The notes: generated by a model from the letters alone, not told the origin. 64,000 nt of DNA from PVC group bacterium (GCA_024231215.1 JAAEQR010000142.1:292593-356592), one strand, 5' to 3'; counted from the stretch's first letter, positions 4,284 to 29,087 are shown. Program-made: numbers and translations.

Positions 4284-6428
4284 ATGGATACCCTGAAAGT
4301 TTTTAAGTCCCTGCCAGAAGAAATACAAGAAGTCCTGAAAGCAAGCGGCATTGATAATCTCTATCCGCCTCAGGCCGAAGCCGTAACCAACGGCTTACTT
4401 GAAGATAAAAACATAGTTCTCTCCATGCCTACAGCTGCAGGAAAAACTCTTCTGGCTGAACTAGTCATGCTAAAAACTCTTTTAGATAAAAAAGGTAACT
4501 GCCTATACATTGTTCCCTTAAGAGCTCTGGCTTCTGAAAAATTTGAGGATTTTAGAAAGAAATTTGCTTCTTTAGGAATAAAAGTAGGAATCGCTACCGG
4601 GGATTTTGATCGCGTAGATCCCTATCTAACCAAAAACGATATCCTGATCGCCACTGCAGAAAAAGTCGATTCTCTCTTGCGTCAAAAACCAGATTGGCTT
4701 TGTTCCCGCCTGGCTTGTGTGGTTATCGATGAAATCCATTATATCGGAGATCCTAAACGCGGACCAACCCTGGAAACCGTAATTACCAGGCTTCTAAATA
4801 TGAATCCTGATTTGAAACTTGTGGGGTTAAGTGCAACCATTGCCAATGCCAATGATATTTCCGGCTGGCTGAATGCTTCCCTGGTCTCCAGCATCTGGCG
4901 GCCGGTAAGCTTAAAAGAAGGTGTCTACTGCGAGGGAGAAATCACCTTTGCCGATGGCTCCAGAAAACAGATTGATTTCGAACATACCTCCGATGATGTC
5001 GCAGCTTTGGCTATTGATTGCATTAAAGATACAGGCCAAGTACTTGTCTTTGTTACTACCCGGAGATCAGCACAAGCTGAAGCACGCCGGATTTCCAAAG
5101 AAGTACAACATATCTTAACTACTAAAGAAAAAACAAAACTCAATGATCTGGCAAAAGAAATAGAAACATCAGCTGGAGAAACAACCAAAGTCAGTAAACA
5201 ACTCGGAGAATATCTGAAAAACGGTGTAGTCTTTCATCATGCGGGATTACATTACTCACACCGCAAAATTATCGAAGATTCATTCCGGCAAAATCTGATT
5301 AAGGTCATCTGTGCTACACCAACTTTAGCTGTAGGCGTAAATCTCCCTTCCCGACGTACAATAATTCGGGGACTTTACCGCTATGTATCAGGAGTAGGCA
5401 TGCGTCCGGTAAGGGTTATGGAATATAAACAAATGAGCGGAAGAGCCGGACGACCGGGATACGATAAATTCGGAGAGTCAGTCCTGTTTGCACGTAATAA
5501 ATCCGAACAACAGGACCTATTCAGTGATTTCATCTTTGCCGATTCTGAGCCGATACATTCACATTTGGGGAATGAAAGTGCTTTGCGCGTACACCTTTTA
5601 GCATCTATTGTCACCGGATTTATCACCAGTGAAGAAAGTGCTTTTGAATTTATAAAAAAAACATTCTTTTCTTATCAGGAAAAATACTATGATCTCTCTG
5701 ATATGATTCTAGAAATTCTTGAATTTCTAGAAAGCGAAGACATGATCCAGAAAAAAGCCAGCCAATTATTACCGACAGCTTTTGGCACCAGAATCAGTCG
5801 TTTATACATTGATCCGATAAGCGCGGTTATTTTAAGAGATTGCCTTAAAGATGCTCCTACGGCCCTACACCCGACAACGCTGCTCTATCTTATCTGTTCA
5901 ATTCCGGATATGTGTAAATTAGCTTTAAAAAAACAAGATATCGAAAAATTAGTGCCCTTTGCCGATAAACACGCAGACCTATTTGAACTCCCCCTGCCTC
6001 TGGATGACGATTACAGTTCTCAGCTGGCTAAAATCAAAACTGTCCTACTGCTCATGCAATGGATGGAAGAAGTCAAAGAAGATACCATCTGCACCTCATT
6101 TGGTATCGGGCCCGGCGATGTACATCGCTTTGTTGAAACAGCAGAATGGTTATTCTATGCAACCATAGAACTTTCAAAGCTATTTAAAACCCCAACCATT
6201 GAAAAATTGCATAATATACGCACCCAACTGCGCTACGGCATAAAATCAGAACTAATGGATCTGGTCAGATTAAAAGGAATTGGAAGAACACGTGCCCGCA
6301 ACTTATTCTCCGCAGGCTTTAAAAATATGCAAAAACTGCAAACAGCTCCTCTGCAAAAGCTACAGAAAGTACCAACTATCGGAAAAGAAATCGCCGCAAA
6401 CATCAAAAAACAGGCTGTTGCGCTTTAG
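4284..6428 (+). CDS. Hel308/Ski2-like superfamily-2 DExH helicase
   Basis: Motif I MPTAAGKT, motif II DEIH, motif VI QMSGRAGRPG, a long C-terminal winged-helix/ratchet region and a terminal helix-hairpin-helix (LVRLKGIGRTRARNLF). The 714-aa length matches archaeal Hel308. Confidence 0.8.
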   Translation: MDTLKVFKSLPEEIQEVLKASGIDNLYPPQAEAVTNGLLEDKNIVLSMPTAAGKTLLAELVMLKTLLDKKGNCLYIVPLRALASEKFEDFRKKFASLGIKVGIATGDFDRVDPYLTKNDILIATAEKVDSLLRQKPDWLCSRLACVVIDEIHYIGDPKRGPTLETVITRLLNMNPDLKLVGLSATIANANDISGWLNASLVSSIWRPVSLKEGVYCEGEITFADGSRKQIDFEHTSDDVAALAIDCIKDTGQVLVFVTTRRSAQAEARRISKEVQHILTTKEKTKLNDLAKEIETSAGETTKVSKQLGEYLKNGVVFHHAGLHYSHRKIIEDSFRQNLIKVICATPTLAVGVNLPSRRTIIRGLYRYVSGVGMRPVRVMEYKQMSGRAGRPGYDKFGESVLFARNKSEQQDLFSDFIFADSEPIHSHLGNESALRVHLLASIVTGFITSEESAFEFIKKTFFSYQEKYYDLSDMILEILEFLESEDMIQKKASQLLPTAFGTRISRLYIDPISAVILRDCLKDAPTALHPTTLLYLICSIPDMCKLALKKQDIEKLVPFADKHADLFELPLPLDDDYSSQLAKIKTVLLLMQWMEEVKEDTICTSFGIGPGDVHRFVETAEWLFYATIELSKLFKTPTIEKLHNIRTQLRYGIKSELMDLVRLKGIGRTRARNLFSAGFKNMQKLQTAPLQKLQKVPTIGKEIAANIKKQAVAL

Positions 6429-7604: not shown

Positions 7605-8669
7605 TTATCTTGTCTCTGCCAGCTCAAAATCCTGTAAAAAAGTATTTACAAACTTACCCAACTGTACAACAAATTTATTATTATCTTTAGTGAATTTATG
7701 ATCTTTTTCTTCTGTGCTCAGATTTAAAACCCCAAAAACCTTGTCTCCTCTTTTCAAAGGAACAATTAAAGAAGCTCTAAGTTTAGGCTGATGCAATCGG
7801 GAAGATAATCGATCCGAAACAGAATGATTATCAACAAACAAAACTTTATCTTTCTGGGCAGCCCAACCTGCAAGTCCTTGCCCTAAAATAAGTCTTGTGC
7901 TCTGAATAACATGATCCGGAATACCCGAGGAAATTCGAATGGATAGGGTATCCGTGCCTTCGTCACGCAGCATGATTGAAGCACGTTCTGCACCTAACTG
8001 CTTAGCTGTTGTATCAAAAAAAGCCTGCAATATTTTATTTGCATAAAAGGAAAATGTCTGTCCGTCTAAAGTTATCGGCTTAGACTGACTTGATCCAGCC
8101 ACATATTCTGTCTTTTGCGCCCCGGCTTGAACAAGATAATTTGCCACTTCCTGCATAAGAGAGATCGTAGACTGAATTGATTGAAAAGAAAATATCTTTA
8201 TCTGCTCTACAGCATCAATCACATTAGTAATATCAAGTATCAATTGTTGGGCCAAATTAAAATATTCAAAATATGTGCGCCGTCTTCCCAAAATCAACGG
8301 TCCAATCACAATATATGCACAGATATCTTTCGAGGATAACCGAATAGGAACAATAACCCGATGGGCAAAAAACGGACAGCAATCATAATAAACATTATTA
8401 GGGTTGTCTAAAAAGTTCTCTTTGGCAACTAGCAAAGGATCTTTAGAACATATTTCAGGAGAGAATAATAAGCATTGCTTACAAACATCTAAAGCGCAAG
8501 AAGAAGAGGAAATAACCTCAAAACAATATCGATGAGGCTGGCTTAAAGAGGTTAGCGGCGTACCCCGGGGATCCACCACCCGTATCGTCGCTCCAATAAC
8601 TCCAGCAAAATAATTTTGAATTACCTGCCATTTTTTAAGATCAATTAATTCCAGAAAAGTAGAATCCAT
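7605..8669 (-). CDS. regulatory protein with an N-terminal PocR-like sensory domain and a C-terminal GAF domain
   Basis: The N-terminal half resembles PocR ligand-binding domains. The C-terminal half has a GAF-like pattern (ERASIMLRDEGTDTL...LGQGLAGWAA...ASLIVPLKRGDKVFGVLNLS). The start abuts the stop of the response-regulator gene. Confidence 0.55.
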   Translation of the reverse strand: MDSTFLELIDLKKWQVIQNYFAGVIGATIRVVDPRGTPLTSLSQPHRYCFEVISSSSCALDVCKQCLLFSPEICSKDPLLVAKENFLDNPNNVYYDCCPFFAHRVIVPIRLSSKDICAYIVIGPLILGRRRTYFEYFNLAQQLILDITNVIDAVEQIKIFSFQSIQSTISLMQEVANYLVQAGAQKTEYVAGSSQSKPITLDGQTFSFYANKILQAFFDTTAKQLGAERASIMLRDEGTDTLSIRISSGIPDHVIQSTRLILGQGLAGWAAQKDKVLFVDNHSVSDRLSSRLHQPKLRASLIVPLKRGDKVFGVLNLSTEEKDHKFTKDNNKFVVQLGKFVNTFLQDFELAETR

Positions 8670-10111
8670 TACACCGTAATATCTTCTGATACAAGATTGA
8701 TGTTACCTACCCTTCCATTTCCCCGTTTAATACCATAAAGTCTCATTTTATTATACAATGTTGTCCGATTAATATCTAAATAAGCGGCTGCTTTAGTACA
8801 ATTCCAGTTAGAATATGTCAGGGCATTCAGAACAATATCTTTTTCCGGCATCCTTAACGCAGTTTTTAAAGAAAAGCCATGTATATCCGCCGAAAGAACC
8901 TCTGTTTTCTGAACAGCTTTACGTATGGAATCCGGCAGATCCCTTAAATTTAAAACACTGCCTTTAACCAAGATACAAGCGCGTTCAATCGTATTTTCCA
9001 ATTCCCGGATATTTCCCGGCCAGGAATATTCCATCATAGCCTGTAAAGCATCTTCATTAACTCTCTCAATTACCCGGCCGTTCTTTGTCTGTTTTCTACC
9101 CGTATTATATTTATCTAAGAAGTGATTAATAAGTAACGGTATATCTTCTGCGCGCTCGCGCAAAGGCGGAATTTCTATCTTTATAACATTCAGCCGCCAG
9201 TATAAGTCTTCACGAAAACTCTTTTTCTTAACCAAATCCTCTAGATTTTGATTAGTCGCCGCAATAATCCTCACATCCGCGGTACGTGTTTTCATGTCCC
9301 CCACGCGTTCATAATTACCCTCTTCTAATATCCGTAATAATTTTACCTGCAAACTAGGTGAACAGGTATCAATTTCATCTAAAAGAAAAGTCCCGCCATT
9401 AGCTAATTCAAATCTTCCGGCTCTATCCTTTATCGCTCCGGTAAAAGAGCCTTTGACATGTCCAAAAAGTTCGCTCTCAAGCAGAGTCTCAGGTAAAGCC
9501 CCACAACTAACTTCAATAAACGACTTCTCACAGCGATAATTATCAGCCTGACGAATTGCCTGGGCAATCATCCTCTTGCCTGTCCCGCTCTCTCCTGAAA
9601 TAAGTACTGTAGTCGGAGAATCGGAAATTGCCTCGATCATCGAATAGATCTTCTGCATACTTTCATTGCCGCCGATAATGTTATGGAATTTTTTTCTTCC
9701 TGCTGTAATCAGCGATTCCGCCTGTTCTGAACAGACTTCCGCGGTTTCCTGATGCTTAATAATTTTCTCTACCAAAGATTTAAGCTGATTATCTTCAATC
9801 GGCTTGGTCATGTAATCAAAAGCACCCATACGCATTGCTTTTACTGCTGTTTCAATATTGCCGTAAGCACTCATAAGCACTACATATGTTTGGGGATAAT
9901 TTTCTTTTATGGTTTTTAATAGCTCCTCACCTTCACAAGTAGAGCTGTCAATATCTGCAAAGATAATGTCTACGGAATACTTATCCATGAGTTGAAGTAT
10001 CTGCGCTCCATTTTCAGCCGTGGTAACATTATACCCCTTGTATCTTAAAATTTCTTGAAGAGATCTCCTCGTTAATGGTTCTTGATCAGCAACTAATATG
10101 TGTGTCCTCAT
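8669..10111 (-). CDS. sigma-54-dependent two-component response regulator (NtrC family; PrsR-like by context)
   Basis: REC domain (ILVADQEP...D), AAA+ sigma-54 activator domain (GESGTGK, GSFTGA variant of GAFTGA, ELFGH) and a C-terminal Fis-type HTH. Likely start is the ATG at 10109-10111, preceded by GGAGG; the longer ORF in the track begins with TTG. Confidence 0.9.
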   Translation of the reverse strand: MRTHILVADQEPLTRRSLQEILRYKGYNVTTAENGAQILQLMDKYSVDIIFADIDSSTCEGEELLKTIKENYPQTYVVLMSAYGNIETAVKAMRMGAFDYMTKPIEDNQLKSLVEKIIKHQETAEVCSEQAESLITAGRKKFHNIIGGNESMQKIYSMIEAISDSPTTVLISGESGTGKRMIAQAIRQADNYRCEKSFIEVSCGALPETLLESELFGHVKGSFTGAIKDRAGRFELANGGTFLLDEIDTCSPSLQVKLLRILEEGNYERVGDMKTRTADVRIIAATNQNLEDLVKKKSFREDLYWRLNVIKIEIPPLRERAEDIPLLINHFLDKYNTGRKQTKNGRVIERVNEDALQAMMEYSWPGNIRELENTIERACILVKGSVLNLRDLPDSIRKAVQKTEVLSADIHGFSLKTALRMPEKDIVLNALTYSNWNCTKAAAYLDINRTTLYNKMRLYGIKRGNGRVGNINLVSEDITV

Positions 10112-10113
10112 CT

Positions 10114-11250
10114 TTATCCTCCTATTGGTAGCCTTACCGTAAACCGAGCTCCTCCTTGAGACACACTTTCTCCTCTTACTTCTCCTTGATAACAATCAAT
10201 TATTTCTTTAACAATCGCTAAACCTAAACCTTGCCCTCTGGACTTTGTCGTAACGAAAGGCTCAAAGATCCTATCTTTAAACCGAGCATCAATCCCCTTG
10301 CCCGTATCCACAAAATCCACACAAAGATGGCCATTGTCCCGATAGCTTTTCACGTTTAGCTTACCTTTTTCATCTATAGCCTCAAATGCGTTTTTTACAA
10401 AATTAACAAAAATCTGCTGTAGACCACAATCCCTTATCAGCGGGAGGTCCCGAGTAAATTCCGTCTCGATATCTATTTGCTTACATATCGCCTGATGCTT
10501 ATAGAATGATATCGATTTGCTTAAAATATCATTTATATTTACCAGATCTCTTGATACTGGATTATGATTTCTATCTCCGGCAAAAGAAAACTCAAGCATA
10601 GAACGCAAAACATTTGCCATTCTCTTTAACCCTGCCTGAATTTCAGACAAATATTCCTTGATTATAGTTCCCTCTCCTGCCTGTTCCTTGCAAAGATTAA
10701 CGTAACGCATAATCCCATCTAACGGATTATTTAATTCTTGAGATATCCCGGCTGTAAACTTACAAACTGCCGTTGAATTCTTAAAACACTGCAGCTGCGC
10801 TTCCAGATGTTCTTTTGCAAATAAACTCTCTATTGTCTGTGCCGCAGAAGCAGCAATCGCACTAACAAAAGACAATTCCTTTATTGAAAACGGGGTTCCA
10901 TCATTCTTTTCTGTAACATTGAGAACCCCAAGCAAGCGATCTTCACGCATCAAAGGGACTGAAAGAAAAGAATGTGTTTGATAGTTTTCCTGACGACACT
11001 GAGTGCTAATCGACTCTTCCTGCCGCACATCTGCTACCAGCAATGGCTGTTTGCTTAAAGCCACCTGCCCGGAGATACCTTGTCCCAAACGCATACGCTC
11101 CCCAAGAATTGACTGTCTATTCTTACCACGCGCCACACGAACCACAATATCCTGCTTATTTTTATCCAAAAGCAGTATAGACCCGACTTCTGAATCTAAT
11201 ATATTCAGGCACTGATTAAGAATGGTCTCTAAAAATTTCTGCATATACAC
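10114..11250 (-). CDS. GAF-domain sensor histidine kinase (cytoplasmic)
   Basis: N-terminal GAF domain, HisKA region with the phospho-acceptor His (FTAGISQELNNPL), HATPase_c with N and G boxes (DTGKGI, GQGLGLAIV). Stop lies 2 nt from the response-regulator start. Confidence 0.85.
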   Translation of the reverse strand: MYMQKFLETILNQCLNILDSEVGSILLLDKNKQDIVVRVARGKNRQSILGERMRLGQGISGQVALSKQPLLVADVRQEESISTQCRQENYQTHSFLSVPLMREDRLLGVLNVTEKNDGTPFSIKELSFVSAIAASAAQTIESLFAKEHLEAQLQCFKNSTAVCKFTAGISQELNNPLDGIMRYVNLCKEQAGEGTIIKEYLSEIQAGLKRMANVLRSMLEFSFAGDRNHNPVSRDLVNINDILSKSISFYKHQAICKQIDIETEFTRDLPLIRDCGLQQIFVNFVKNAFEAIDEKGKLNVKSYRDNGHLCVDFVDTGKGIDARFKDRIFEPFVTTKSRGQGLGLAIVKEIIDCYQGEVRGESVSQGGARFTVRLPIGG

Positions 11251-17572: not shown

Positions 17573-20062
17573 TTACCGGCATAAAATCCGGCTTAAAGTA
17601 ATCAAAGGTTTCAAGCTAATTCTGATAATTTTACGTACTGCTGGTTTCTGTGCAATGCGATCGGCGATCGGAGGACTGTATGTATAATACAGTTTCACGA
17701 ATTTTCTGCCTAATGGATTAGTCAATAAGTAATCATCTCTAAACTCGCACAGAACTCGTACTTCTTTAGCCATCTTTGTTCCAAACGCTGCTGTAGCAAT
17801 AAAACATCCACCGCCGCCACCGCCGCCGCCAGAAGAACCACTTGCTGCTGCAGGAGGAGTGCTATCGCTATCGCCATCACTATCATCGCTATCTCCATCA
17901 TCTCCGGTATCAGTACTACCATCTGTTGAGTTAACGCCACCTATCGCATACATAGAAAAGTGAGTTGTAGGAACAGATACTTTTTTAGCCGCAACATCTA
18001 CAGTTGCACCGGGAACTTTTTCCCAAGCTGAAGTCGTAAGATTGTAATAATAGATGTTCAACGAAGACTCTTCCTCAATTCCGGCACTACTTAATTGAGC
18101 ACTAGTATAAGGAATAGTTATCGTTGCCGGAATATCAAACTCTGTTCCTCCCGGCCCGAAATCAACCACATTACCAACAATAAGAGTACTGCCTGTAGCT
18201 TCAGGAGCTGCTACTACTTGCGCTACCGTAATTGTAGTTGGCGCATCTATGGCTTGAGCACCTATGGCTACGCTTGTTCCAACAATGTTTCCTGTCTCAA
18301 CTAGTACGCTACCGCCAATCTCGTTATCTACTTTTTCCGCTTTAATTTCATCAGTAGTTAAAAACGTATTCCGGCAAAATTCAATTTCTTGTCTTCCTGA
18401 AGAGGTATCTGACCATGATACATAGTAATGACATCCTTGCGTATTTATCGCCAGAGAAGGATTATACTGCGTAGCCGTAGTATCAAACTGAGAGTATTCC
18501 TGGAATATATAATCCTGATAAGATGCTCCAGCTAATCCCACGCTGTAATTACCAGAACTATATTGCTGCCAAACAACTAAAGCATTTCCTTTAGTATCTA
18601 TGGCTAAATCATATGCCCCCAGAGAATCCGTACTTAAAATCGTTGCCGTACTATCCAGATTGTATAAGCTCTGTGCCTGGCTATACAGGTAACTAGCAAA
18701 CATCAAATCTCCAGCTTCTTTCCAAACCAGATATACATTATTTCCGTCAGAACTTACATCTAAAGCCGGCCCTTTATCTCCGGCTGTTGCAGCATTTGCT
18801 TCTACATCCGTCCCAAAACTTTCTCCGCAGTCAATTATATTCTTACTTGCACTATCAAAATAAATGCTATATGTACTATCATTGTTAACGCCATTCCAAG
18901 CTATAAATATCTTACTATTAGCATCCACCTCTATAGCCGGAGCAGCAGCTTTCTGCGGCCAGCGATCTTCATCTACTCGTAACGCTGTTCCTACAAATAC
19001 CTGCCATGCATCGGTATAATCTGCTGTTGTTCTAGTGTAATTTAAACTCGCATTACCACCATTCTCATCCACCCAACAAACATAAACAGTTGCCGGCTCT
19101 ACAGTCTGATCATCACCATCACCGGTAAGTGCCGCACCAACTGTCATTGCCGGAAATACCTGATTGCTTGTTCCTGCATCATTATATATCAGATGATTTA
19201 CTCCAAAAGCAGAACCAACAGCTTCTTTCCTAGATACATATATATCCCAGTCTCCTAAAACACTCATTTGCTGCCAAGCTACATAGATATTATTCTGGCT
19301 ATCTACTGCAATCGAAGGATACCGATCTTCTATTCCAACCGCAGAACTGTTAACTTTTATTGAAGATTGAAAACTAACTCCAAAATCAACTGACTGAGAA
19401 AAGTATATGTCCCATTCACCTTCAGTAGAACGTTCTTCCCATACCATATATACATTCTTACCATCATCAGAAGTAACTATGTGTGCTTTATCTTTCAAAG
19501 GTTCTACCGCAAATGATTCCATCATACCGCTTATAGAAACTTTTTTCTCTTTTCCGTAGATAAAATTTTGCGTTCTAAAATCGTATGTGTAAGCATTCAT
19601 CTGATTGCCCTCTAAATCTAATGCATCAACTTGAATCTCCACATTCTGCTTATAGATAAAATAATCGGCAGGATCATACATTATTACATACTCATTATTA
19701 GAGTTAACAATGATCTCTACATCATAATCTACGATCGATCCCTGCGAATCCGTATAACTCTGAACAACTCCATCTTCAATTATACTGACTCCCTCTACGG
19801 CAAGATCAATACTACTGCTATCAACCCCAATAATATCATCTTTTATACAAAGCTGAATGTTAGAATGAACCGGGATGTTGTTATTATTGTCTTGTGGAAA
19901 ACATCCATCAACATAAGGAGCATCATTATCAGCCCGCGTAGTGAAAGAATAAGTATCCGCTGTCATCTGATTAGCACAATAAGCATTAGCTGCGATCAAG
20001 AGCACCATCAAGCAGCTTATTGCCATTGTTATGATTTTTTTATTTTGTTTTGCATGTGTCAT
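17573..20062 (-). CDS. secreted surface protein 1: signal peptide, ANQMTAD N-terminal module, BNR/Asp-box-like beta-propeller repeats, Gly/Ser/Asp linker, conserved 'CFIATAAFG' C-terminal domain
   Basis: Signal peptide. Repeated Y[VL]VW.E...DIY.S.S.D.G.SF-type units. Acidic poly-G/S/D linker, then [12 protein letters not shown] and an ~80-aa tail shared with gene 25575-29087. Likely start is the ATG at 20060-20062, preceded by GAGGTGG. Confidence 0.7.
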
Positions 20063-20400
20063 CGTCCACCTCAAAAAAAGAGCCTGTTCTTGAAAGTTTT
20101 AGAACAGGCGTTTTCTTGAGTGCGGAACGGTTAGTACATAGTTTTATTTTCGACAGCTACGAGTTCCATACTATCCGCTATCACGCTACTTACTACTACT
20201 TATCACCTTCGGCAACCCAGCTGCCTTACTAGTCAATGGTCAATGGTCAATGGTCAATAGTTTAAACTTACTATCAGCCATTAGCTATCAACTATCAGCT
20301 AATGTAGGCCTGTGGCTTTGCTTCTCCGCCGCACTTGGCGGAGAAAGGCATTCACCTGTCCCATTCTTTCAAATGGTTTGCTATTATCGTGGTACACATT
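20063..20400 (-). promoter_or_regulatory. conserved 5' leader (copy A) with a GNRA hairpin, a covarying GC stem, heptad repeat arrays and a terminator-like hairpin + U-tract just 5' of the RBS
   Basis: Blocks shared with the leaders at 21382-21732 and 24999-25365: cacgataatagcaaaccatt[ct]gaaagaatggg, ggcctgtggctttgct, ttcggcaacccagctgcc. Hairpin gcctgttct/agaacaggc at 20082-20109 followed by U8. Confidence 0.6.
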
Positions 20401-20607
20401 TCAAAGTACAATTTTCACTTCTTATGTATTAAAAGCAATTACTATTCCAACAGTATCATTTATTGCGCATTTTATTAAATTCATAACCTCTTTATTTTCA
20501 AAACCTTGCAGCTTTGCAGTCATTTTATTTTTCATTAGCATCTTGCTGCCTCATTAAAACCTTAGAAAAATTTTTCTAAATCAGGAAATCAATTTCCGTT
20601 TTTCACG

Positions 20608-20647
20608 TTGGTAAGCGGTTAACGGGGCGCTGTTAACCGCTTACCAA
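20608..20647 (-). other. perfect 16-bp inverted repeat (stem-loop) 11 nt downstream of the gene-2 stop
   Basis: ttggtaagcggttaac-ggggcgct-gttaaccgcttaccaa. No U-tract, so it is not a canonical intrinsic terminator. Confidence 0.4.
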
Positions 20648-20658
20648 TATCCGTTGCG

Positions 20659-21381
20659 TTATATGGCTAAATCGCTGGCTTCTACACTTATATTCACTAC
20701 TTCTTCATTATCAAAATCTGCAGGAGGTGCATATGTTAAGGTATAATCCGCTGATGTTCCGGTTATCGTTGGTGTTACAGTCGTTCCATTAACTTTCATA
20801 ATAATCGTGTTAATATCTACTCCAGCACCATCATCAAGTACATGCACAACAATATCTGTATCCCTGGCCACTCCCGTAGCATTTTTAGCCGGGCTATGTC
20901 CGGTTGTATACGGTGGAGTTGTATCAGGAACCGCTGAGGTAGTTACATTAGGAATGTTAGATATAGATGAAATGTTTGATTCTTCATCAGAAGTTTTAAT
21001 CGCAAAATAGTATGCTGTCTCTGCCAATAACCCATTGACCGTCATACTTTCGTTGGACCCAGCAATACTAGGAGTAGGCTCTCCGCTCACTTGCGTTGCA
21101 CTAGCCCAATTACCTTCATTGATCACAGAGGTAGAATATCTCAAATCATAACTTGTAGCTGTTCCTGTACTCCCGTCATCACCCGGAGCTGTCCAGGAAA
21201 GAGTTGCAGAATTATGAGTTGAATCTGAAATTGCTAAATCCGAGACTGCCAAAGGAGCAATCAAATCATCTACGATCGTAAATGAATATACATCTGCAGT
21301 CATCTGATTGGCACTATACACATTCCCGGCGATACATAGAACCATTAAACTTGTGATTATAAAACTACTTATCTGCCTCAT
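20659..21381 (-). CDS. secreted surface protein 2 (signal peptide, ANQMTAD module, FN3-like domain, Big-like C-terminal domain)
   Basis: N-terminus matches gene 1 (ANQMTADVYSFT). The C-terminal ~90 aa match the C-terminus of gene 3 (TTPPYTTGH...VEASDLA) at both protein and DNA level. Confidence 0.6.
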   Translation of the reverse strand: MRQISSFIITSLMVLCIAGNVYSANQMTADVYSFTIVDDLIAPLAVSDLAISDSTHNSATLSWTAPGDDGSTGTATSYDLRYSTSVINEGNWASATQVSGEPTPSIAGSNESMTVNGLLAETAYYFAIKTSDEESNISSISNIPNVTTSAVPDTTPPYTTGHSPAKNATGVARDTDIVVHVLDDGAGVDINTIIMKVNGTTVTPTITGTSADYTLTYAPPADFDNEEVVNISVEASDLAI

Positions 21382-21732
21382 AATCTTACCTCATCCTCCT
21401 TCTCCGAAAAAAAATCCTGTCCTCGAATTTATATAGAGAACAGGCGTTTTCATCGGTCAGCGCTCACCCGCCCAGTCTTCTGACGAATTTAACGTATCAG
21501 TCATCCTGTACGCTAAACGCTGTTTTTTTTACCTTCGGCAACCCAGCTGCCCTGTCCGCCATTGCGAACTTGGGGCCTGTGGCTTTGCTCCCCGCCTTAA
21601 TCTCAGCAGGAAGGGCCTCTTGACAGCCAATCCATCAAATTCATTTGTCATTTGTAACTCGACATTTGTAATTCAGGCTTTGCCTGTCGCCCGTCCCATT
21701 CTTTCGAATGGTTTGCTATTATCGTGTATAAC
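21382..21732 (-). promoter_or_regulatory. conserved 5' leader (copy C) with a terminator-like hairpin + U-tract 5' of the RBS
   Basis: Shared blocks at 21531-21551, 21574-21596 and 21688-21726. Hairpin cctgtcctc/gagaacagg at 21415-21445 with U8. Confidence 0.55.
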
Positions 21733-21752
21733 CCCTTTTAAAAGGGGTATTT

Positions 21753-24700
21753 TTAAGGAGCGAGGTCACTCGCTTCTACACTTACGCTTACCACCTCCCC
21801 ATTAGCAAATTGTGAACCCGGCGCATAAGTTAAAGTGTAATCAGCCGGAGTTCCGGTTATCGTTGGTGTTACAGTCGTTCCGTTAACTTTCATTACAATT
21901 GTATTAATATCAACTCCATCACCATCATCTTTTACATGAACTACAATATCTGTATCCCTGGCTATAGCAATAGCATTTTTAATCGGATCATGTCCGGTAG
22001 TGTATGGCGGAATTGTATCCGGCAAGATTATAGTTTCTTTGGCCTCGGCATTAGCACTATTGGAAAGACCGGAAGTATTCGGAACCTCATCCTGTGTTTT
22101 CATCGCAAAGTAGTATGTTGTACCCGGAGTAAGGCTGCTTACAGTCATTGATTCAGATGTACCGGCAACACTAGGTGTAGGCTCTCCGCTAACATCACTT
22201 GCCGCATTAAATAAAGTATCATTAGTTATGTCTGACGTTGAATACTTAATTATATATACAGAAGCCGTTCCGCTTGTCCCGTCATCTCCGGGAGCTGTCC
22301 AAGTCAAATCAATTTCTCCGTCAGCTGAACCAGTCACCGCACTTAAGTTACTCACTGCTGCTGGTGCAGTAGAATCACCCCCAGCTGCTACCTTTTCATA
22401 AGCACCAATATCATATATCCCGTTTTGCGGCCGCGAAACTTCCAAAAGATCATCATCTACATATGCGCTTAAATTTGCACCCTGATTCACTGCCGGACCT
22501 CCAGCCTTTAATTGATAATTATCCGCACCCGGATTTTCAAAAACTTCAGAAGAGGTCGCGACAACAGAGTTATCGTCCTGATTATAATTGTTCTGCCAAC
22601 TAGTTAAACTTACTAAACTTCCGGTAGGATCCTCTATATTTGTAACAATATTGTAATCACTGTCTAAACCCGACATACTTTCAGGATCTACGGCAAGACT
22701 ATCCTGCCCTCCTTCATGTATCAATATATTGTTCTTGACTTCATTACCCGTACTTCCGTTACGCAATGAAAAAGCATGCGCTCCGCCGGAAGGAACAATT
22801 ACCGTATTGTTAAAATATTTATTATCCTTACTGCCGTAAGCATCTCCTACTCCATCATCCCAACTTGCGATACCATGCTGTTGATTACCATAAACCAAAT
22901 TATTTATAATCACTGAATTGCGAATAGACGCAAAATTTAATCCGCTTGTTCCGTTGTTATAAACAATATTACTATCTACTATCGCGTTTGTAATAATCCC
23001 GTCACCTTCTTCAGCCGGGTCTGCGTTTATTTGGATTCCACCCCGGTAATTATCATAACTCGTATTACCTCTGACTATCGGATTGTCACCGCTATTCGCT
23101 ACATAAATTCCATGTGTATTTCCTGATCCCCACACTTCGTTATTTTCAATCAAGGCATCAACTGCGAACGAAGTAGAAATTCCTACAGATCCCATATTTG
23201 ATATTCGACAGTTTTTTATCTCTATTCCCAGGATATCATCTCCCGAATCCTTAGATATTCTTACCCCACGATCACTGCTTCCAGACTCTCCAATCATCCG
23301 AAATCCATCTATAGTTACATAATTTCCAGTGACATGAATTACTGCAGACCTTGCTTCGTATGCAACATTGCTGTTTAATATAACATTGCTGTTTGCAGCT
23401 CGAAAAGTTATCCTGTCTGTAGCCGTTCCCGCAGTACTAATCACAAATCCATCGTAAGTACCTGTCTGTACAATTACAGTATCTCCGCCAACTACAGTAT
23501 CTGCTGCATGCTGAATGGTTTCCCAGGGATTCCCCAGAGATCCATCATCACCGTTATCTCCACTCTCAGCCACATAATAAGTATCTCCATCATACGGATT
23601 TTCATTACCTAAATAATTCCATATATAATCGGTAAATGTCTCACTATCCGCACAGAATCCTCTCTCATGATCAGTTGTGGCTGGAGAATCTCCATAATAG
23701 GCATATGACTCTCTCATTTCATTATACATACGATCTTGATACGGCCAAGACCATAAATCATCAGCCGTCAAGACCCCATCTACATACCTTTTGATAACAT
23801 TTGCCCCTCGATCAACATCCCCTTGACCTGTCCCATCACAAGCAGAGCTATCTTCAATTCTAAGGGGATACAATATTCCCGAATCTCCAGTTAAAGCATT
23901 AGTTCCATAAGTTGCCCCGGAATTATCAAAATAGCAATAACTATCCGCTTTATCTGCCCTACTACAATTTTTAAATAAACAATTAGTAACATTTATACCT
24001 GAGCTCGAAGTAGTGTCTATTACGTCTCCAGATGATCCAATAAAAGTACATCTATCAATACTGAATGACGGATTAACTCTACAATTAACAAAAACACTTT
24101 CAGATGTTCCCACTCCCACACAATCAAGTAATCCATAAGTCATATCAGAATCTAAATTAAACGGTCTAAAATTTCCCGTATTAATTGCAATACAACCATA
24201 AATTTTATTATTACTTGAACCGCTTCTGTGCCTAAATGCAGCCCCTGCAGACCCGCTATCCGCAAAATCAATCGCAATACAATTCTCAAAAATTGAATTC
24301 TCTGCGCCATAAAAAGTAAATCCATTCTCGCCTTGGGAATCATCCTGAACTCCATCAAAACGCACCACAACACGCCTTATAGTTATGTTTGCTGTATGTG
24401 GACCGTCAGGATATTTACCATATAAACTAACTCCCGACCGACAAACCCCCCAAAACCAACAATCCTCAACTAAGCAATACTCAGCATAGTTCCCTACTTC
24501 TAATAAAGCATCCGTAGCACCTCCTGCATTTCTCCCACTACAACGCTGTATTATAATATTATTCACTCTGTTCGCATCATCAGCCCCTGAAATAACAATA
24601 ACCCCATCATTCGATTCTCTGCCATAAATCCCTTGAACAGTAATATACGAATGAGAACCAGTTATATTTATAGGAATCCGTGAACCTCCGCCATCTATAA

Positions 24701-24998
24701 TTACGCCTCCATCTGTCTCCGCTAAAATATATGTAGGCGCCCCATCTGAACCGCTTACAGGATCAACAATATTACTACCGCTGTAATCATATATGCCATT
24801 TTTATAAATCAAAGTATCTCCACCGCTCATTACCGAATTTGCATGGCTAAAAGTTCTCCAGGCATTATTATAACTGCCGTCGCCACTACCATCATTCCCA
24901 CTCGGAGAAAGATAATACGTAGCAGCAAAAAGTGAATCCGCCTGAACAATAGCTACGATACTACAGATTATTAGAATAAATATTATTTTTATTTTCAT
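21753..24998 (-). CDS. secreted surface protein 3 (signal peptide; parallel beta-helix domains X and Y; FN3; Big-like C-terminal domain)
   Basis: Right-handed beta-helix (pectate-lyase/NosD-like) repeat patterns (NNIVYNNGTSGLNF, NNLVYGNQQHGIA, GNTSYDNYRGGIQIN), FN3-like LTWTAPGDDG...YYFAMKT, and a Big-like terminal domain. The same domains occur in swapped order in gene 4. Confidence 0.75.
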   Translation of the reverse strand: MKIKIIFILIICSIVAIVQADSLFAATYYLSPSGNDGSGDGSYNNAWRTFSHANSVMSGGDTLIYKNGIYDYSGSNIVDPVSGSDGAPTYILAETDGGVIIDGGGSRIPINITGSHSYITVQGIYGRESNDGVIVISGADDANRVNNIIIQRCSGRNAGGATDALLEVGNYAEYCLVEDCWFWGVCRSGVSLYGKYPDGPHTANITIRRVVVRFDGVQDDSQGENGFTFYGAENSIFENCIAIDFADSGSAGAAFRHRSGSSNNKIYGCIAINTGNFRPFNLDSDMTYGLLDCVGVGTSESVFVNCRVNPSFSIDRCTFIGSSGDVIDTTSSSGINVTNCLFKNCSRADKADSYCYFDNSGATYGTNALTGDSGILYPLRIEDSSACDGTGQGDVDRGANVIKRYVDGVLTADDLWSWPYQDRMYNEMRESYAYYGDSPATTDHERGFCADSETFTDYIWNYLGNENPYDGDTYYVAESGDNGDDGSLGNPWETIQHAADTVVGGDTVIVQTGTYDGFVISTAGTATDRITFRAANSNVILNSNVAYEARSAVIHVTGNYVTIDGFRMIGESGSSDRGVRISKDSGDDILGIEIKNCRISNMGSVGISTSFAVDALIENNEVWGSGNTHGIYVANSGDNPIVRGNTSYDNYRGGIQINADPAEEGDGIITNAIVDSNIVYNNGTSGLNFASIRNSVIINNLVYGNQQHGIASWDDGVGDAYGSKDNKYFNNTVIVPSGGAHAFSLRNGSTGNEVKNNILIHEGGQDSLAVDPESMSGLDSDYNIVTNIEDPTGSLVSLTSWQNNYNQDDNSVVATSSEVFENPGADNYQLKAGGPAVNQGANLSAYVDDDLLEVSRPQNGIYDIGAYEKVAAGGDSTAPAAVSNLSAVTGSADGEIDLTWTAPGDDGTSGTASVYIIKYSTSDITNDTLFNAASDVSGEPTPSVAGTSESMTVSSLTPGTTYYFAMKTQDEVPNTSGLSNSANAEAKETIILPDTIPPYTTGHDPIKNAIAIARDTDIVVHVKDDGDGVDINTIVMKVNGTTVTPTITGTPADYTLTYAPGSQFANGEVVSVSVEASDLAP

Positions 24999-25365
24999 AT
25001 TTCCCCCTTAAAAAAAATACCTGTCTTCAGAAGTTAGAGAACAGGCGTAGTTCTAGTATATATAGAGTAATAGATATTATTCTCCTATACACTATTTTCC
25101 ATTCGGCAACCCAGCTGCCTTATCAGTCAATGGTCAATAGTCAATGGTTAATAGTTTTAATTCATATCAGCCATTAGCTACCAACTATCAGCTAATGTAG
25201 GCCTGTGGCTTTGCTCCTCCCGCCGTATTTTGGCGGGGAGAGGGCGTCCGCCCGTCCCATTTTTTCAACCCCGAATGAAGCAACCCTTCCAGGATACTCT
25301 TCGGGGTGCCGATGCGTTTCTCCCTAAGAGAACTACATTCGGCAATGGTTTGCTATTATCGTGGT
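24999..25365 (-). promoter_or_regulatory. conserved 5' leader (copy B) with an ~75-nt insertion inside the GNRA-hairpin stem and a terminator-like hairpin + U-tract 5' of the RBS
   Basis: Shared blocks at 25102-25120, 25127-25216 and 25243-25363. Covarying stem ctcccgcc/ggcgggag. Hairpin plus A8 (U8 on the minus strand) at 25010-25048. Confidence 0.6.
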
Positions 25366-25574: not shown

Positions 25575-28500
25575 TTATTTTCCATTTAGCATACTTCTGG
25601 CTACGCTAATTAAAGGATGCAAAACACTTCTTACAACTGCTTTGATTTCTTCTTTTTCCTTTATATACTCAGCTACATCAGGACTACACTTATAATATAC
25701 CCCGACAAAAAGTTTTCCGCAAGTATTACTCAGTAAATACTTATCTCTGAATCGACATAAAGTAACAACTTCATCAGCCAACGAAGTTCCAAAAGCTGCC
25801 GTAGCTATAAAACAAAGCCCGCCATCATCGCTGCTGCTGCCACCACCACCTGCCGCAGCAACATCGCCTTCGCCATCACCACCCCCATCACTACTTTCTG
25901 GGGTAATCGCACTGGCTGGATTTGAATATCCAGAACAAGCATGGTCATTATACGAACGTATTCGATAATTATATTTTGTTCCCAAACTGCGCCCTGTATC
26001 TATGTAGATATTAGTGTCAGGATCAGTAATATCAATTTCTGTATTACCTGCAATAAATTCAACACTTCTCTCTATTTTAAAACCATCGATACCAACCGAA
26101 TTATCTTCCCACGCAAGAGCAATACAATTATCGTTTATTAATTGAGCTGTAAGATTAGATGGTGTGGCTAACGTATATCCTGTTGTAGCATAAGCTTCAT
26201 TAGAATACGCTGTTTTCTCTGTAGAGTCATAGACTGCTCTGACTTGATAATAGTATGTAGTATTTCCAGCTAAGCTTCTATCGTCATAAGCTATTACATT
26301 TTGCCCCACAGTAGCTATCCGAACATATGTTCCTCCCACACCTTTTTTTCTTTCTATTTCAAATCCATCTTCCCCTTGAGCATTGTCCTTCCAATCTAAT
26401 CTTATCTCACTTAATGATACAGATCGAGCCGTTAGTTCTGAAGGGGGATATACCGGAGGAGGAGGATTGCTTAAGTACCCCCATACATAGGAAGTCAGAG
26501 TTTGCGTATCCGCACAAAATCCTCTTTGTGCATCTACAGTTGGAGGAGTACTCCCTGCTGGCGGTGTTATAGACTCCCTCATTTCCAACTTTATTCTATT
26601 TTCATTCGGCCAGGGCCATAAACTAGTTTGAGTCAATGTCCCGTTAACATATCGATTTAACACATTTGCTCCTCGATCAACACCACCTTGACCTGTCCCA
26701 TCACAAGCAGAGCCATCCTCAATTTTAATGGAGTAAAGCAACCCTGAATCACCACTTGAAGCATTAGTTCCATAATCCGAGCCAGAATTATCATAATGAC
26801 AATAACTATCCGCTTCATCTCCACTACCACAATTTTTAAACAGACAATTAGTAACATTTACACCTGAACTTGAAGTAGTATCTAAAACATCACCCGATGA
26901 TCCGATAAAAGTACACCTATCAATATTAAATTCTGGATTAATTCTACAATTAACAAAAACACTTTTAGTTGTTCCCACGCCCACACAATCAAGTAATCCA
27001 TAAGTCATATCAGAATCTAAATTAAACGGTCTAAAATTCCCCGTATTAATTGCAATACAACCATAATATTTATTATCACTTGACCCGTCTCTATGTCTAA
27101 AGCCAGCTCCAGCATTAGCCCCATTTGCAAAATCAATAGCAATACAGTTTTCCAAAATAGAATCATCGGCTCCGTAAAATGAGAATCCATTCTCTCCCTG
27201 AGAACCATCTTGAACCGCATCAAACCTGACTACTACTCTGCGCACTATAATATTATTTGTATGAGGACCTGCGGGATACTTACCATATAAGAGCACACCT
27301 GTTCGGCAAACTCCCCAAAACCAACAATCTTCTATTAAACAATACTGTGCATAATTACCAATACTACAAATAGCATCTGTAGCACCCCCGGCATTTTTAG
27401 CTCCAACACGTCTTATTTCTATATATTCGGCTCTATGATTATCGTCTACTCCGCTTACATCAATGACCTCATCGCTGGAATTATAACAATAAAATCCTTC
27501 AATCCTAATATATCTGGGAATATATGAACCTTCTCCAGTAATATCAATCGGAATACGGCTACCGATACCATTAATTTTCGCTTGCCCGTCATGTTCAGCT
27601 TTAATTGTAGTATATGCAACAGCACTTCCACTTACAGGATCAACAATATTACTCCCGGGATAATCATAAATACCATCTTTATAAATAAGAGTATCCCCAC
27701 CACTCATCTGAGAGCTAGCTTGGGTAAATGTCCTCCAGGGATTATTATAGCTGCCGTCACCGCTGGAATCACTTCCAATCGGTGAAATATAATAAGCTCC
27801 GCTTAATGTGTTTTCATATGTACCTATATCATACACAAAAGCCTGCGGCCGAACAACTCCCAATAAGTCAAAATTAACATCACCGCTTAAATTTGCTCCC
27901 TGATCTATCGCCGGACTCCCAGCTTTTAATTTATAATTATCTGACCCAGGATTTTCAAACACGGAAGAAGCCGTTGCAACAATAGAATTATTATCCTGAT
28001 TATAATTATTCTGCCAACTAGTTAAACTTACTAAACTTCCTGTTGGATCTTCAATATTAGTAACTATATTATAATCGCTGTCTAAACCAGCCATACTTTC
28101 TGTATCTACGGCAATACTGTCCTGGCCGCCTTCATGTATCAATATATTGTTCTTTACGACATTACCCGTACTTCCGTTACGCAATGAAAAAGCATGCGCT
28201 CCCCCGGAAGGAGCCACCACTGTATTATTTAAATATTTATTGTCTTTGCTCCCATAACTATCTCCTGCTTCATCATCCCAACTTGCAATACCATGCTGTT
28301 GATTATCATAAACCAGATTGTTCCTGATCAATGAGTTACGGATAGACGCAAAATTTAATCCACTTGTCCCGTTGTTATAAACGATATTATTTTCTACCAA
28401 AGCATTGGTAATTATCCCATCACCTGCCTCCAGCGGATCTGCGTTTATCTGGATTCCGCCTCTATCATTATTATAGCTCGCATTACCTCTGACTATCGGA

Positions 28501-29087
28501 TTGTCACCGCTATTAGCTACATAGACTCCATGCGTATTTCCTGAACCCCACACCTCGTTATTTTCAATCAAAATATCAACTGCAAACGAAGTAGATATCC
28601 CCACAGATCCCATATTTGATACTCGACAGTTTTTTATCTCTATTCCCAGGATATCATCTCCTGAATCCTTAGATATCCTTATCCCGCGATCATTGCTTCC
28701 AGATTCTCCAATCATCCGAAATCCATCAATAGTTACATAATTTCCAGTGACATGAATTACGGCAGATCTTGCTTCGTAGGCAACATTAGTATTTAAGACA
28801 ACACTGCTGTTTGCAGCTCGGAAGGTTATTCTGTCTGTAGCAGTACCTGCGGTGCTGATCACAAATCCATCGTAAGTACCCGTCTGTACAATTACAGTAT
28901 CTCCGCCAACTACAGTATCTGCTGCATGTTGGATGGTTTCCCAGGGATTACCCAGAGATCCGTCATCGCTGTCAGATCCGCCCTCTGAAACATAATAGTC
29001 CGCAGCAAAGGAAAATGGAGTAAAGAGGACAGAAAGCGCAAGAATACACAGATTGGCTAGTAAAAAGATTTTTAAATTTTTACTCAT
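25575..29087 (-). CDS. secreted surface protein 4 (signal peptide; beta-helix domain Y then X; two FN3 domains; G/S/D linker; 'CFIATAAFG' C-terminal domain)
   Basis: Domain Y (aa ~30-440) is nearly identical to gene 3 aa ~470-900; domain X likewise. Two FN3-like units (WKDNAQGEDGFEIERK; WEDNSVGIDGFKIERS). C-terminal [14 protein letters not shown]... tail shared with gene 1. Confidence 0.75.
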   Translation of the reverse strand: MSKNLKIFLLANLCILALSVLFTPFSFAADYYVSEGGSDSDDGSLGNPWETIQHAADTVVGGDTVIVQTGTYDGFVISTAGTATDRITFRAANSSVVLNTNVAYEARSAVIHVTGNYVTIDGFRMIGESGSNDRGIRISKDSGDDILGIEIKNCRVSNMGSVGISTSFAVDILIENNEVWGSGNTHGVYVANSGDNPIVRGNASYNNDRGGIQINADPLEAGDGIITNALVENNIVYNNGTSGLNFASIRNSLIRNNLVYDNQQHGIASWDDEAGDSYGSKDNKYLNNTVVAPSGGAHAFSLRNGSTGNVVKNNILIHEGGQDSIAVDTESMAGLDSDYNIVTNIEDPTGSLVSLTSWQNNYNQDNNSIVATASSVFENPGSDNYKLKAGSPAIDQGANLSGDVNFDLLGVVRPQAFVYDIGTYENTLSGAYYISPIGSDSSGDGSYNNPWRTFTQASSQMSGGDTLIYKDGIYDYPGSNIVDPVSGSAVAYTTIKAEHDGQAKINGIGSRIPIDITGEGSYIPRYIRIEGFYCYNSSDEVIDVSGVDDNHRAEYIEIRRVGAKNAGGATDAICSIGNYAQYCLIEDCWFWGVCRTGVLLYGKYPAGPHTNNIIVRRVVVRFDAVQDGSQGENGFSFYGADDSILENCIAIDFANGANAGAGFRHRDGSSDNKYYGCIAINTGNFRPFNLDSDMTYGLLDCVGVGTTKSVFVNCRINPEFNIDRCTFIGSSGDVLDTTSSSGVNVTNCLFKNCGSGDEADSYCHYDNSGSDYGTNASSGDSGLLYSIKIEDGSACDGTGQGGVDRGANVLNRYVNGTLTQTSLWPWPNENRIKLEMRESITPPAGSTPPTVDAQRGFCADTQTLTSYVWGYLSNPPPPVYPPSELTARSVSLSEIRLDWKDNAQGEDGFEIERKKGVGGTYVRIATVGQNVIAYDDRSLAGNTTYYYQVRAVYDSTEKTAYSNEAYATTGYTLATPSNLTAQLINDNCIALAWEDNSVGIDGFKIERSVEFIAGNTEIDITDPDTNIYIDTGRSLGTKYNYRIRSYNDHACSGYSNPASAITPESSDGGGDGEGDVAAAGGGGSSSDDGGLCFIATAAFGTSLADEVVTLCRFRDKYLLSNTCGKLFVGVYYKCSPDVAEYIKEKEEIKAVVRSVLHPLISVARSMLNGK

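Follow-up and report, generated by a model that had tools for sequence, protein, structure and literature searches.

Three surface-protein gene leaders of a PVC group bacterium as probable GEMM-I-class riboswitches with two inserted hairpins and an adenine at position 20

A 64,000-nucleotide stretch of DNA from a PVC group bacterium (GCA_024231215.1, JAAEQR010000142.1:292593-356592; hereafter the window) carries on its minus strand three genes for secreted proteins, each preceded by a copy of the same leader. A first-pass annotation, made from the sequence alone, had noticed these leaders and described them as structured attenuators of no known family. Here we report that all three are, with little room for doubt, cyclic-dinucleotide riboswitches of the GEMM-I class (Rfam RF01051), each followed by a Rho-independent terminator. 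The class is a known one, yet the RNAs are a distinct structural variant of it: their specificity base is changed, and the switching geometry predicted for them is unusual. Coordinates are those of the whole 64-kb window, and aptamer positions follow the numbering of the Vc2 riboswitch. Leaders and genes A, B and C are the copies ending before the genes that start at 20062, 21381 and 24998; the leaders, their parts and these three genes lie on the minus strand. Loci found in other sequences are given L numbers.

Three copies of a GEMM-I-class leader

Leader A (20063-20394) lies 5′ of the gene at 17573-20062, leader B (21382-21728) 5′ of that at 20659-21381 and leader C (24999-25364) 5′ of that at 21753-24998. 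When the three are aligned, invariant blocks alternate with divergent stretches. The 64-kb window holds exactly three copies of the block CACGATAATAGCAAACC (20375-20391, 21710-21726 and 25347-25363; chance expectation 0.16) and likewise exactly three each of GCAAAGCCACAGGCC and GGCAGCTGGGTTGCCGAA, one per leader (chance expectation 0.04 for GGCAGCTGGGTTGCCGAA). A search of the window found none of these blocks upstream of the fourth gene (25575-29087), in agreement with the earlier statement that this gene lacks the leader. The closest relative, metagenome contig SDBU01000061.1 (L168; 52-70% protein identity for the gene A and B orthologues), has the same gene order and the same three leaders, so the arrangement is conserved and not a recent accident.

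A cmscan search of the whole window against Rfam at gathering thresholds returned only two matches, both to RF01051 (c-di-GMP-I/GEMM-I; gathering score 35 bits). They fall on leader A (37.7 bits, 20208-20392) and leader B (38.2 bits, 21534-21606, with a second, partial match of 26.7 bits at 21619-21727 covering the 5′ half); leader C scores 32.8 bits, just under the gathering score. The scores of all copies are depressed because the model must skip insertions. The leaders match no other Rfam family up to an E-value of 1. An Rfam match had been named beforehand as the result that would overturn the claim of no known family, and cmscan places the three copies in RF01051; that claim therefore falls.

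As first defined, GEMM-I RNAs have a P1 made of 2-bp and 6-bp stems around a 3-nucleotide (nt) internal loop and closed by a GNRA tetraloop, an AAA linker, a P2 with a tetraloop receptor and, often, a terminator (PMC1950547). Nuclear magnetic resonance of Vc2 identified the pairs G21-C46, C22-G45, G14-C93 and C13-G94 and the long-range pair C44-G83 (PMC11705072). The cmscan alignment to the consensus brings GC-AAA-CC...GG-GAC, GC-AAA-GCC, the bulged AG and GCCGAA all into register, and CACGAUAAUAGCAAACC in the window reads C13 G14 A15 U16 A17 A18 U19 A20 G21 C22 A23-25 C26 C27 with the spacing of Vc2. The outer helix P1a varies in sequence by copy with its pairing kept (ACC/GGU, UAC/GUA and CCA/UGG). 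Copies A and B possess the P1 stems, the AAA/GAC loop and a GAAA cap, and the AAA linker (GC-AAA-GCC) is found in all three; in every copy, however, two additional hairpins, Py and Px, stand between GAC and the 3′ strand of the 2-bp stem, and C has a 75-nt insertion where a simple GNRA cap would be. P2 of A and C contains a tetraloop-receptor-like CCUACA / G(U/A)UAAGG, and the short P2 of B has no obvious receptor. The pocket nucleotides A47, C92 and C44 and the bulged AG (equivalent to G83) are kept in all copies, with position 20 an A.

Aptamer A (20203-20394), the cleanest of the three, is supported by the RF01051 match, the map onto Vc2 and its unconstrained minimum free energy (MFE) fold, which contains P1a, P1b, Py, Px and a long P2 (z = -3.6). 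The 5′ strand of P1a occupies ~20388-20394, A20 is at 20382, and G21 and C22 of the 2-bp stem are at 20381-20380. The P1b hairpin CCAUUU-GAAA-GAAUGG (20361-20376) and GAC (20358-20360, C44 at 20358) are followed by Py (20346-20357), Px (20322-20345), G45 and C46 (20321-20320), A47 (20319), P2 with its long extension (20214-20318) and C92 (20212). Aptamer B (21529-21728; A20 at 21717, C92 at 21538) has P1b CCAUUC-GAAA-GAAUGG at 21696-21711 and GAC at 21693-21695. Its Py (21613-21692) has a GGGC/GCCC base around a ~70-nt insertion with 7-nt repeats, and its Px (21589-21612) is followed by GCAAAGCC from 21588. Aptamer C (25097-25364; A20 at 25354, C92 at 25106) has a P1b stem of CCAUU (25344-25348) and AAUGG (25257-25261), GAC at 25254-25256, Py at 25242-25253, Px at 25215-25241 and a P2 with a long extension starting at 25212.

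This anatomy also disposes of the GATAAT motif as a promoter element or marker of the transcription start site. In the aptamer, GAUAAUA makes up the J1/2 junction (A15-A20 between G14 and G21); as these bases include the ligand-contact position 20, they must be transcribed. Copy B, besides, begins only ~25 nt past the stop codon of the gene before it. As a -10 box, moreover, GATAAT has inconsistent spacing to TTGAAA-like hexamers (~10 versus 14 nt). No convincing sigma-70 promoter was found 5′ of any leader by a simple scan, in which promoter-like sites were fewer than in shuffles; this promoter/terminator scan also missed the leader terminators, because its loop limit is 8 nt, and it was set aside as a test. 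The motif TGTACTTTG (20402-20410) is kept 10-13 nt 5′ of the aptamer start in leader A and in its L168 orthologue (reverse strand ~6415-6423), and may be part of a promoter.

Two hairpins inserted between C44 and G45

Canonical GEMM-I RNAs have no insert between GAC and GC-AAA. Here the inserts are 36 nt (A), 104 nt (B) and 39 nt (C) long and in all three copies form two abutting hairpins, Py and Px. Scanning for the pattern GCAAACC-N8-24-GGGAC-N15-45-GCAAAGCC-NNN-GG gave 73 loci in 185,579 species genomes and 119 loci in metagenomes. Most of these are chance matches, as expected; ~33 distinct sequences are genuine aptamers carrying this two-hairpin insertion. Nine come from Candidatus Omnitrophota metagenome-assembled genomes (MAGs), four from Planctomycetia MAGs and single ones from genomes labelled Actinomycetota, Dehalococcoidales and Clostridia, the remainder being metagenomic. 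Under the RF01051 model they score 37.7-50 bits, at or slightly over threshold.

Among inserts from unrelated MAGs and metagenomes, with the window and L168 included, every one of 35 distinct sequences folds into exactly two hairpins, from just after GGGAC to just before GCAAAGCC (mean z = -4.3 against shuffles). In a hairpin-anchored alignment, all nine pairs at the base of the stems (four in Py, five in Px) have both partners changed, each pair occurring in 4-5 types, and the covariation score is 1.06, compared with 0.22 for shuffled alignments (0/500 reach 1.06) and 0.07-0.27 for slid partners. This alignment was N-padded and anchored on hairpin boundaries predicted by RNAfold, which weighs against our interpretation in so far as it inflates the percentage of paired cells (100% in Py, 96% in Px), but pair-type diversity is not inflated by it. 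A MAFFT alignment of full aptamers misaligned the variable hairpins, and no covariance model was built from it. The first-pass annotation had argued for a structured RNA under selection rather than a DNA site, and this view is borne out. The second covarying stem that it described is real and is Px, although one base had been mis-copied (ctccccgcc with a bulged C, not ctcccgcc). The C-to-U change that it reported in the P1b hairpin is likewise present; being one-sided (C-G to U.G), it is not strictly compensatory.

Py and Px enter the backbone between C44 and G45. In Vc2, C44 pairs over long range with G83 (PMC11705072), and an insertion here would be sterically plausible, with C44 swinging out of the helix to reach G83. 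We found no description of a two-hairpin architecture in the literature, where our coverage of key papers was incomplete and the result is one of absence of evidence; judged by the papers searched, Py and Px would make an undescribed architectural variant of GEMM-I.

Several observations concern individual members and their neighbours. One Omnitrophota MAG carries two aptamers of the subclass in tandem within a single leader (L053, 2706-3000). Py often takes the form GUCC...GGAC directly after GGGAC (for example in L011, L053, L072, L147, L149 and L181); in such cases the 5′ strand of Py is complementary to the GGGAC before it and the 3′ strand is a repeat of that motif, which may point to an origin by duplication or to an alternative pairing by strand swap. 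Other GEMM-I relatives encountered were a c-di-GMP-I-GGC variant (L026, 5505-5624; 60.4 bits), a canonical c-di-GMP-I near a two-hairpin subclass member (L001, 6361-6446; 62.7 bits) and an Elusimicrobia c-di-GMP-I with a branched P1b (L048, 1917-2001; 58 bits), 5′ of a relative of genes B and C that encodes an FN3 protein.

Terminators and a predicted OFF switch

Each leader ends in a 9-bp hairpin whose loop measures 8-11 nt in the fold; 7-8 U come next, and the ATG lies 10 (A), 25 (B) or 11 (C) nt beyond the U-tract, much as had been described. Terminator A (20073-20109) consists of the 5′ half GCCUGUUCU (20101-20109, within which CGCCUGUU is 20102-20109), a loop (20091-20100), a 3′ half (20082-20090) and a U-tract (20073-20081); the Shine–Dalgarno sequence GAGGUGG and the ATG at 20062 follow. 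In terminator B (21407-21445) the halves are 21437-21445 and 21416-21424, with U8 at 21407-21414 and the ATG at 21381. In terminator C (25010-25046) they are 25038-25046 and 25019-25026, with U8 at 25010-25017 and the ATG at 24998. The folds of A, B and C have energies of -13.9, -13.1 and -10.9 kcal/mol (z = -5.4, -4.2 and -3.4). All three lie 55-100 nt 3′ of the aptamers and do not overlap them. The leaders are thus predicted to combine a stable GC-rich hairpin and U-tract, between aptamer and ribosome-binding site (RBS), with a mutually exclusive pairing to the aptamer. The earlier idea of a riboswitch-type transcription attenuator, with an aptamer and then an intrinsic terminator 5′ of the RBS, fits them well.

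The proposed partner of the terminator 5′ half lies inside the aptamer. In leader A, UGGGAC and the Py 5′ strand (UGGGACAGGUG, 20353-20363) pair with ACGCCUGUUCU (20101-20111) with probabilities of 0.87-1.0; this duplex (-15.2 kcal/mol) is the best site, and the antiterminator state lies 0.3 kcal/mol above the MFE (2/200 shuffles are as good). The corresponding partner in B (21688-21698) and C (25249-25259) is UGGGACGGGCG, with -16.4 and -16.9 kcal/mol. When transcripts are cut just past the terminator 5′ half, this half pairs with GGGAC and the Py 5′ strand (GACAGGUG, 20353-20360, in A; GACGGGCG in B and C) with a probability of 0.7-1.0. In each of the six leaders, three in the window and three in L168, GGGAC/Py is the best upstream duplex partner (-12 to -17 kcal/mol, versus -10 to -21 kcal/mol for the terminators), and the pairing is stronger than with 92-99% of shuffled 5′ halves. 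If the full leader is made to fold with the antiterminator helix, its energy lies only 0-8 kcal/mol above that of the MFE fold, which contains the terminator.

Conservation follows the same pattern. ACGCCUGUUCU is invariant in the three window copies and GCCUGUUCU in the six leaders of the window and L168. A more distant leader orthologue (L179, reverse strand ~60-380) precedes a homologous beta-helix protein; it shares the Py/Px insertion and has the terminator 5′ half GCCUGUUC and a duplicated GCCUGU motif. By contrast with this kept 5′ half, the terminator loops, 3′ halves and linkers are divergent among the window, L168 and L179 leaders.

These features suggest a simple mechanism. Over 8-10 bp, the terminator 5′ half would pair with UGGGAC and the Py 5′ strand, which belong to the aptamer core and include C44. 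The resulting long-range helix would, in ligand-free RNA, serve as an antiterminator and allow read-through. With ligand bound, the core would be locked (C44-G83, P1b and Py), leaving the 5′ half free, so that the terminator would form and transcription would stop. Because the antiterminator helix uses C44, Py and part of P1b, it could not coexist with the ligand-bound fold. On this modelling, each leader is probably an OFF switch in which the ligand promotes termination.

Position 20 and the predicted ligand

Position 20 is an A in all three window copies (20382, 21717 and 25354), where cmscan aligns it to the consensus G that stands unpaired just before the 2-bp stem. The three L168 leaders also have A20, giving 6/6 leaders of two related organisms, and the more distant L179 has G. 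The window and L168 on one side and L179 on the other form a natural G20/A20 pair among orthologous leaders.

G20 recognizes the Gα of the ligand by its Watson–Crick edge and C92 pairs with Gβ, and the GEMM-Ib riboswitches for cyclic GMP–AMP (cGAMP) have A in place of G20 (PMC6140456). The mutation A20G turns Gmet_0970 from cGAMP-selective to selective for cyclic di-GMP (c-di-GMP) (PMC6456294), and at one locus of Desulfobacca acetoxidans, homologous aptamers that differ at position 20 differ as predicted in c-AMP-GMP binding (PMC9481103). The GEMM-Ib hallmark, A20 with C92 retained, is present in all three copies, which makes a response to cGAMP, or a dual one, probable. Position 20 is also the sole pocket position known to vary in the family, and its change speaks against a strict specificity for c-di-GMP without speaking against the fold. 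From the aptamer sequences we therefore lean towards 3′,3′-cGAMP, or both cGAMP and c-di-GMP, as the ligand, rather than c-di-GMP alone.

Copy-specific insertions and extensions

In leader C, which is copy B of the first-pass annotation, a 75-nt insertion (25269-25343) that the annotation had noticed within the stem lies inside the P1b loop, where it forms two hairpins 5′ of GAAA and displaces the GNRA cap; the hairpin CCATT-GAAA-AATGG is intact in the copies starting at 20063 and 21382. We considered the insertion as a repeated mobile element and rejected this, as it has no further copy in the window, and it is not found in the orthologous L168 leader.

P2 of leaders A and C carries distal extensions of ~65 nt (20232-20301, from Tandem Repeats Finder (TRF) and folds, and ~25125-25195) with 7-nt tandem repeats on both strands. 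In A, four CUGAUAG-like units pair with four CAUUGAC units. TRF also reports a repeat within the Py insertion of leader B (21641-21673). The helix-tip extensions of P2 (A and C) and Py (B) are thus built from 7-8-nt repeats on both strands (GTCAATG/CTATCAG and TCATTTG). Leaders of other organisms have different repeats in the same places (AAAGTTnA, AACGTT and GAGCTA), with such extensions at ~5255-5300 on the L168 reverse strand, ~7960-8000 in L049 and ~140-240 in L179. Such repeats give the impression of helix tips that have grown repeatedly by slippage, or of a binding array.

Alternative interpretations

If the ligand instead suppressed the terminator and induced the surface-protein genes, the leaders would be ON switches of the same class. 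Published accounts of GEMM-I (PMC1950547) and of the Geobacter riboswitches (PMC6456294) describe mostly ON switches, in whose classic arrangement the terminator 5′ side overlaps the P2 3′ side (PMC1950547). Cyclic dinucleotides usually induce adhesins and matrix genes. It is less usual for a biofilm-type signal to control surface or adhesin-like genes in the OFF direction. Several subclass members (L011, L034, L061 and L124) have classic, P2-overlapping, ON-type terminators, and because the platforms of other members vary, the insertion is not generally a switching device; we discarded the inserted hairpin as a subclass-wide switching element on this ground. The proposed antiterminator helix has further points against it. 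It spans ~200-250 nt and must invade P1b and Py, and it lacks covariation support and rests on conservation and energetics. The lack of covariation arises because both partners are nearly invariant: the two differences between A and B/C are both transitions, and both also preserve Py. A second candidate partner, ACAGGC in the P2 5′ strand, would give OFF logic too, at ~-10 kcal/mol; it is weaker than GGGAC/Py (-12 to -17 kcal/mol) and is not preferred. Against an ON switch, the terminators here stand well downstream and leave the aptamer 3′ strand free, the only strong conserved complement of the terminator 5′ half sits inside the aptamer, and the linkers that an anti-antiterminator relay would need are not conserved between orthologous leaders. 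We consider ON switching rather unlikely. Far less probable still, to the point of being negligible, is a new RNA class under protein-based or processive antitermination (of the kind of eps-associated RNA (EAR), LoaP or RfaH, as first suggested), or a riboswitch for an unknown ligand. The hairpin and U-tract geometry alone would fit it, but the RF01051 assignment, the conserved GEMM-I pocket and tertiary-contact nucleotides and the want of any other Rfam match speak against it. Nothing requires such a mechanism when the cyclic-dinucleotide pocket nucleotides are present, no NusG-like gene was seen among the scanned neighbour proteins, and no EAR family match was found on the leaders up to an E-value of 1.

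The preference for cGAMP or a dual response also has a substantial competitor, namely that the aptamers are ordinary c-di-GMP sensors whose A20 leaves the physiological ligand unchanged. RNAs with A20 bind c-di-GMP tightly through a protonated adenine, bispecificity is widespread, and the G20A mutant of Vc2 is itself bispecific (120 nM for cGAMP, 53 nM for c-di-GMP) (PMC6140456); A20 is necessary, not sufficient, for cGAMP selectivity. The G20 of the distant orthologue points the same way, as does the finding of no cGAMP synthase or GGDEF domain among the 27 window proteins scanned with Pfam, a scan that left ~20 open reading frames outside it. On the other side, A20 is fixed in both related organisms, and in tested systems position 20 decides or strongly shifts recognition of G versus A. 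Pure c-di-GMP sensing is thus quite possible, if the less favoured of the two. It is also conceivable that one or two copies, with C and B as the candidates, are decayed relics that sense no ligand and leave constitutive terminators. Copy C may be impaired, given its score below the Rfam threshold and a lost GNRA cap despite the receptor-like motif in P2, together with an insertion that its L168 orthologue does not share; copy B may be impaired by its large Py insertion. However, all pocket nucleotides, Py, Px, P1a and the terminator and antiterminator blocks are intact in both, and the insertions are themselves well folded and sit at helix tips, where GEMM-I tolerates variation, so that we regard decay as improbable.

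Regulated genes and locus context

The proteins encoded by genes A, B and C all have a signal peptide. Gene A (17573-20062) encodes a secreted protein of 829 amino acids (aa) with an Ig-like (Big_5) N terminus, Asp-box-like repeats and a CFI-box-CTERM (NF041770, 99.4 bits), a domain also found in the 1170-aa protein of the leaderless upstream gene (25575-29087). Gene B (20659-21381) encodes a secreted protein of 240 aa with FN3 and Big_5 domains and no C-terminal anchor domain. Gene C (21753-24998) encodes a secreted protein of 1081 aa with two right-handed beta-helix (pectate-lyase-like) regions, a choice-of-anchor Q domain, FN3 and an Ig-like end. Proteins B (20659-20680) and C (21753-21775) stop just after ...VEASDLA(I/P), apparently in the middle of an Ig-like (Big_5) domain, and, unlike A and the 1170-aa upstream protein, have no CFI-box-CTERM. 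The same ends (VEAQDLAN) are kept in L168 (reverse strand 5099 and 6210), and so are not assembly artefacts. Leader, signal peptide and the ANQMTAD..YSFT N terminus together look like a duplicated cassette.

Leader B starts ~25 nt past the gene C stop codon (21753) and must therefore be transcribed from upstream, which would place the switches in series within one transcription unit. The three switches would then gate successive genes, C, then B, then A, in an exosortase/Wzx–Wzy polysaccharide locus. The locus contains the exosortase EpsH, an EpsI-like protein, PEP-CTERM proteins, a sigma-54 response regulator with a kinase, glycosyltransferases, a Wzy-like polymerase and a flippase. At 7605-11250, downstream of the exosortase genes, lie a PocR+GAF sensor protein, the sigma-54 response regulator (like the PEP-CTERM-box regulator, under the cut-off of that model) and a histidine kinase. 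They would form a second, protein-based layer of control of the locus; the sigma-54 regulator is not needed for the switch mechanism. Two further hairpins without a minus-strand U-tract lie between the elements: a perfect palindrome, ACCCCTTTTAAAAGGGGT (21731-21748), between the gene C stop codon and aptamer B, and a 16-bp hairpin, TTGGTAAGCGGTTAAC...GTTAACCGCTTACCAA (~20603-20650), after gene B.

Discussion

The window elements share with Vc2 and RF01051 the spacing and identity of C13 G14, A18, the G21 C22/G45 C46 stem and the AAA/GAC loop, as well as, in copies A and B, the GAAA-capped P1b, and also A47, the AAA linker, the AG bulge of P2, a receptor-like motif and C92-C93-G94. They likewise form 5′ leaders with an intrinsic terminator before genes for extracellular proteins. 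They differ in having A rather than G at position 20, in P2 extensions of 65 nt built from repeats and in a remote terminator that does not overlap P2. A further difference is the pair of hairpins (30-45 nt; ~100 nt in copy B) at C44/G45, which turn P1 into a multi-helix junction. GEMM-Ib riboswitches (Gs1761 and Gm0970 of Geobacter and the cluster-3 aptamer of D. acetoxidans) resemble the window RNAs in A20 (A14 of Gs1761), in the retained C92 and in their association with extracellular or surface functions. The described GEMM-Ib members are, in contrast to the predicted OFF switches of the window, ON switches and have no two-hairpin insertion, and the window host is apparently no relative of Geobacter (38% GC; close relatives only in a metagenome).

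OFF-type c-di-GMP-I riboswitches reportedly include Cd1, upstream of flgB in Clostridioides difficile, and Bc1 of Bacillus thuringiensis, which is said to have a long expression platform. Predicted ligand-promoted termination and a long platform before the terminator are features in common with the window leaders, whose proposed antiterminator partner is, however, an internal segment (P1b 3′ strand, GAC and Py) and not the aptamer 3′ end. The c-di-GMP-I-GGC and c-di-GMP-I-UAU families (Rfam clan CL00126) also combine the same fold with altered pocket nucleotides, but the window copies score best with RF01051 and are changed at position 20 only.

Taken as a whole, the most far-reaching proposal would be an undescribed GEMM-I subclass, mainly of Omnitrophota and Planctomycetia, whose A20, here, extends cGAMP sensing beyond Geobacter, in which Py and C44 act as a ligand-gated antiterminator toehold and serial OFF switches control an exosortase-linked surface-protein operon. 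In this complete form it is speculative, and we hold it to be doubtful.

The main value of the work lies in correct annotation: secreted beta-helix and FN3 proteins of an exosortase/exopolysaccharide locus are predicted to come, in an uncultured lineage, under second-messenger control. At the point where C44 departs from the helix for its pairing with G83, the GEMM-I fold can accommodate a two-hairpin insertion, and some phyla conserve it. This bears on how the pocket is constructed and on the tuning of homology models, as the Rfam model scores such RNAs marginally. Orthologous leaders with G20 in one lineage and A20 in the others would offer a natural case of a change in ligand specificity. 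Finally, the predicted mechanism would employ an internal aptamer segment, rather than the 3′ strand, as the antiterminator partner, with three switches acting serially in one gene cluster.

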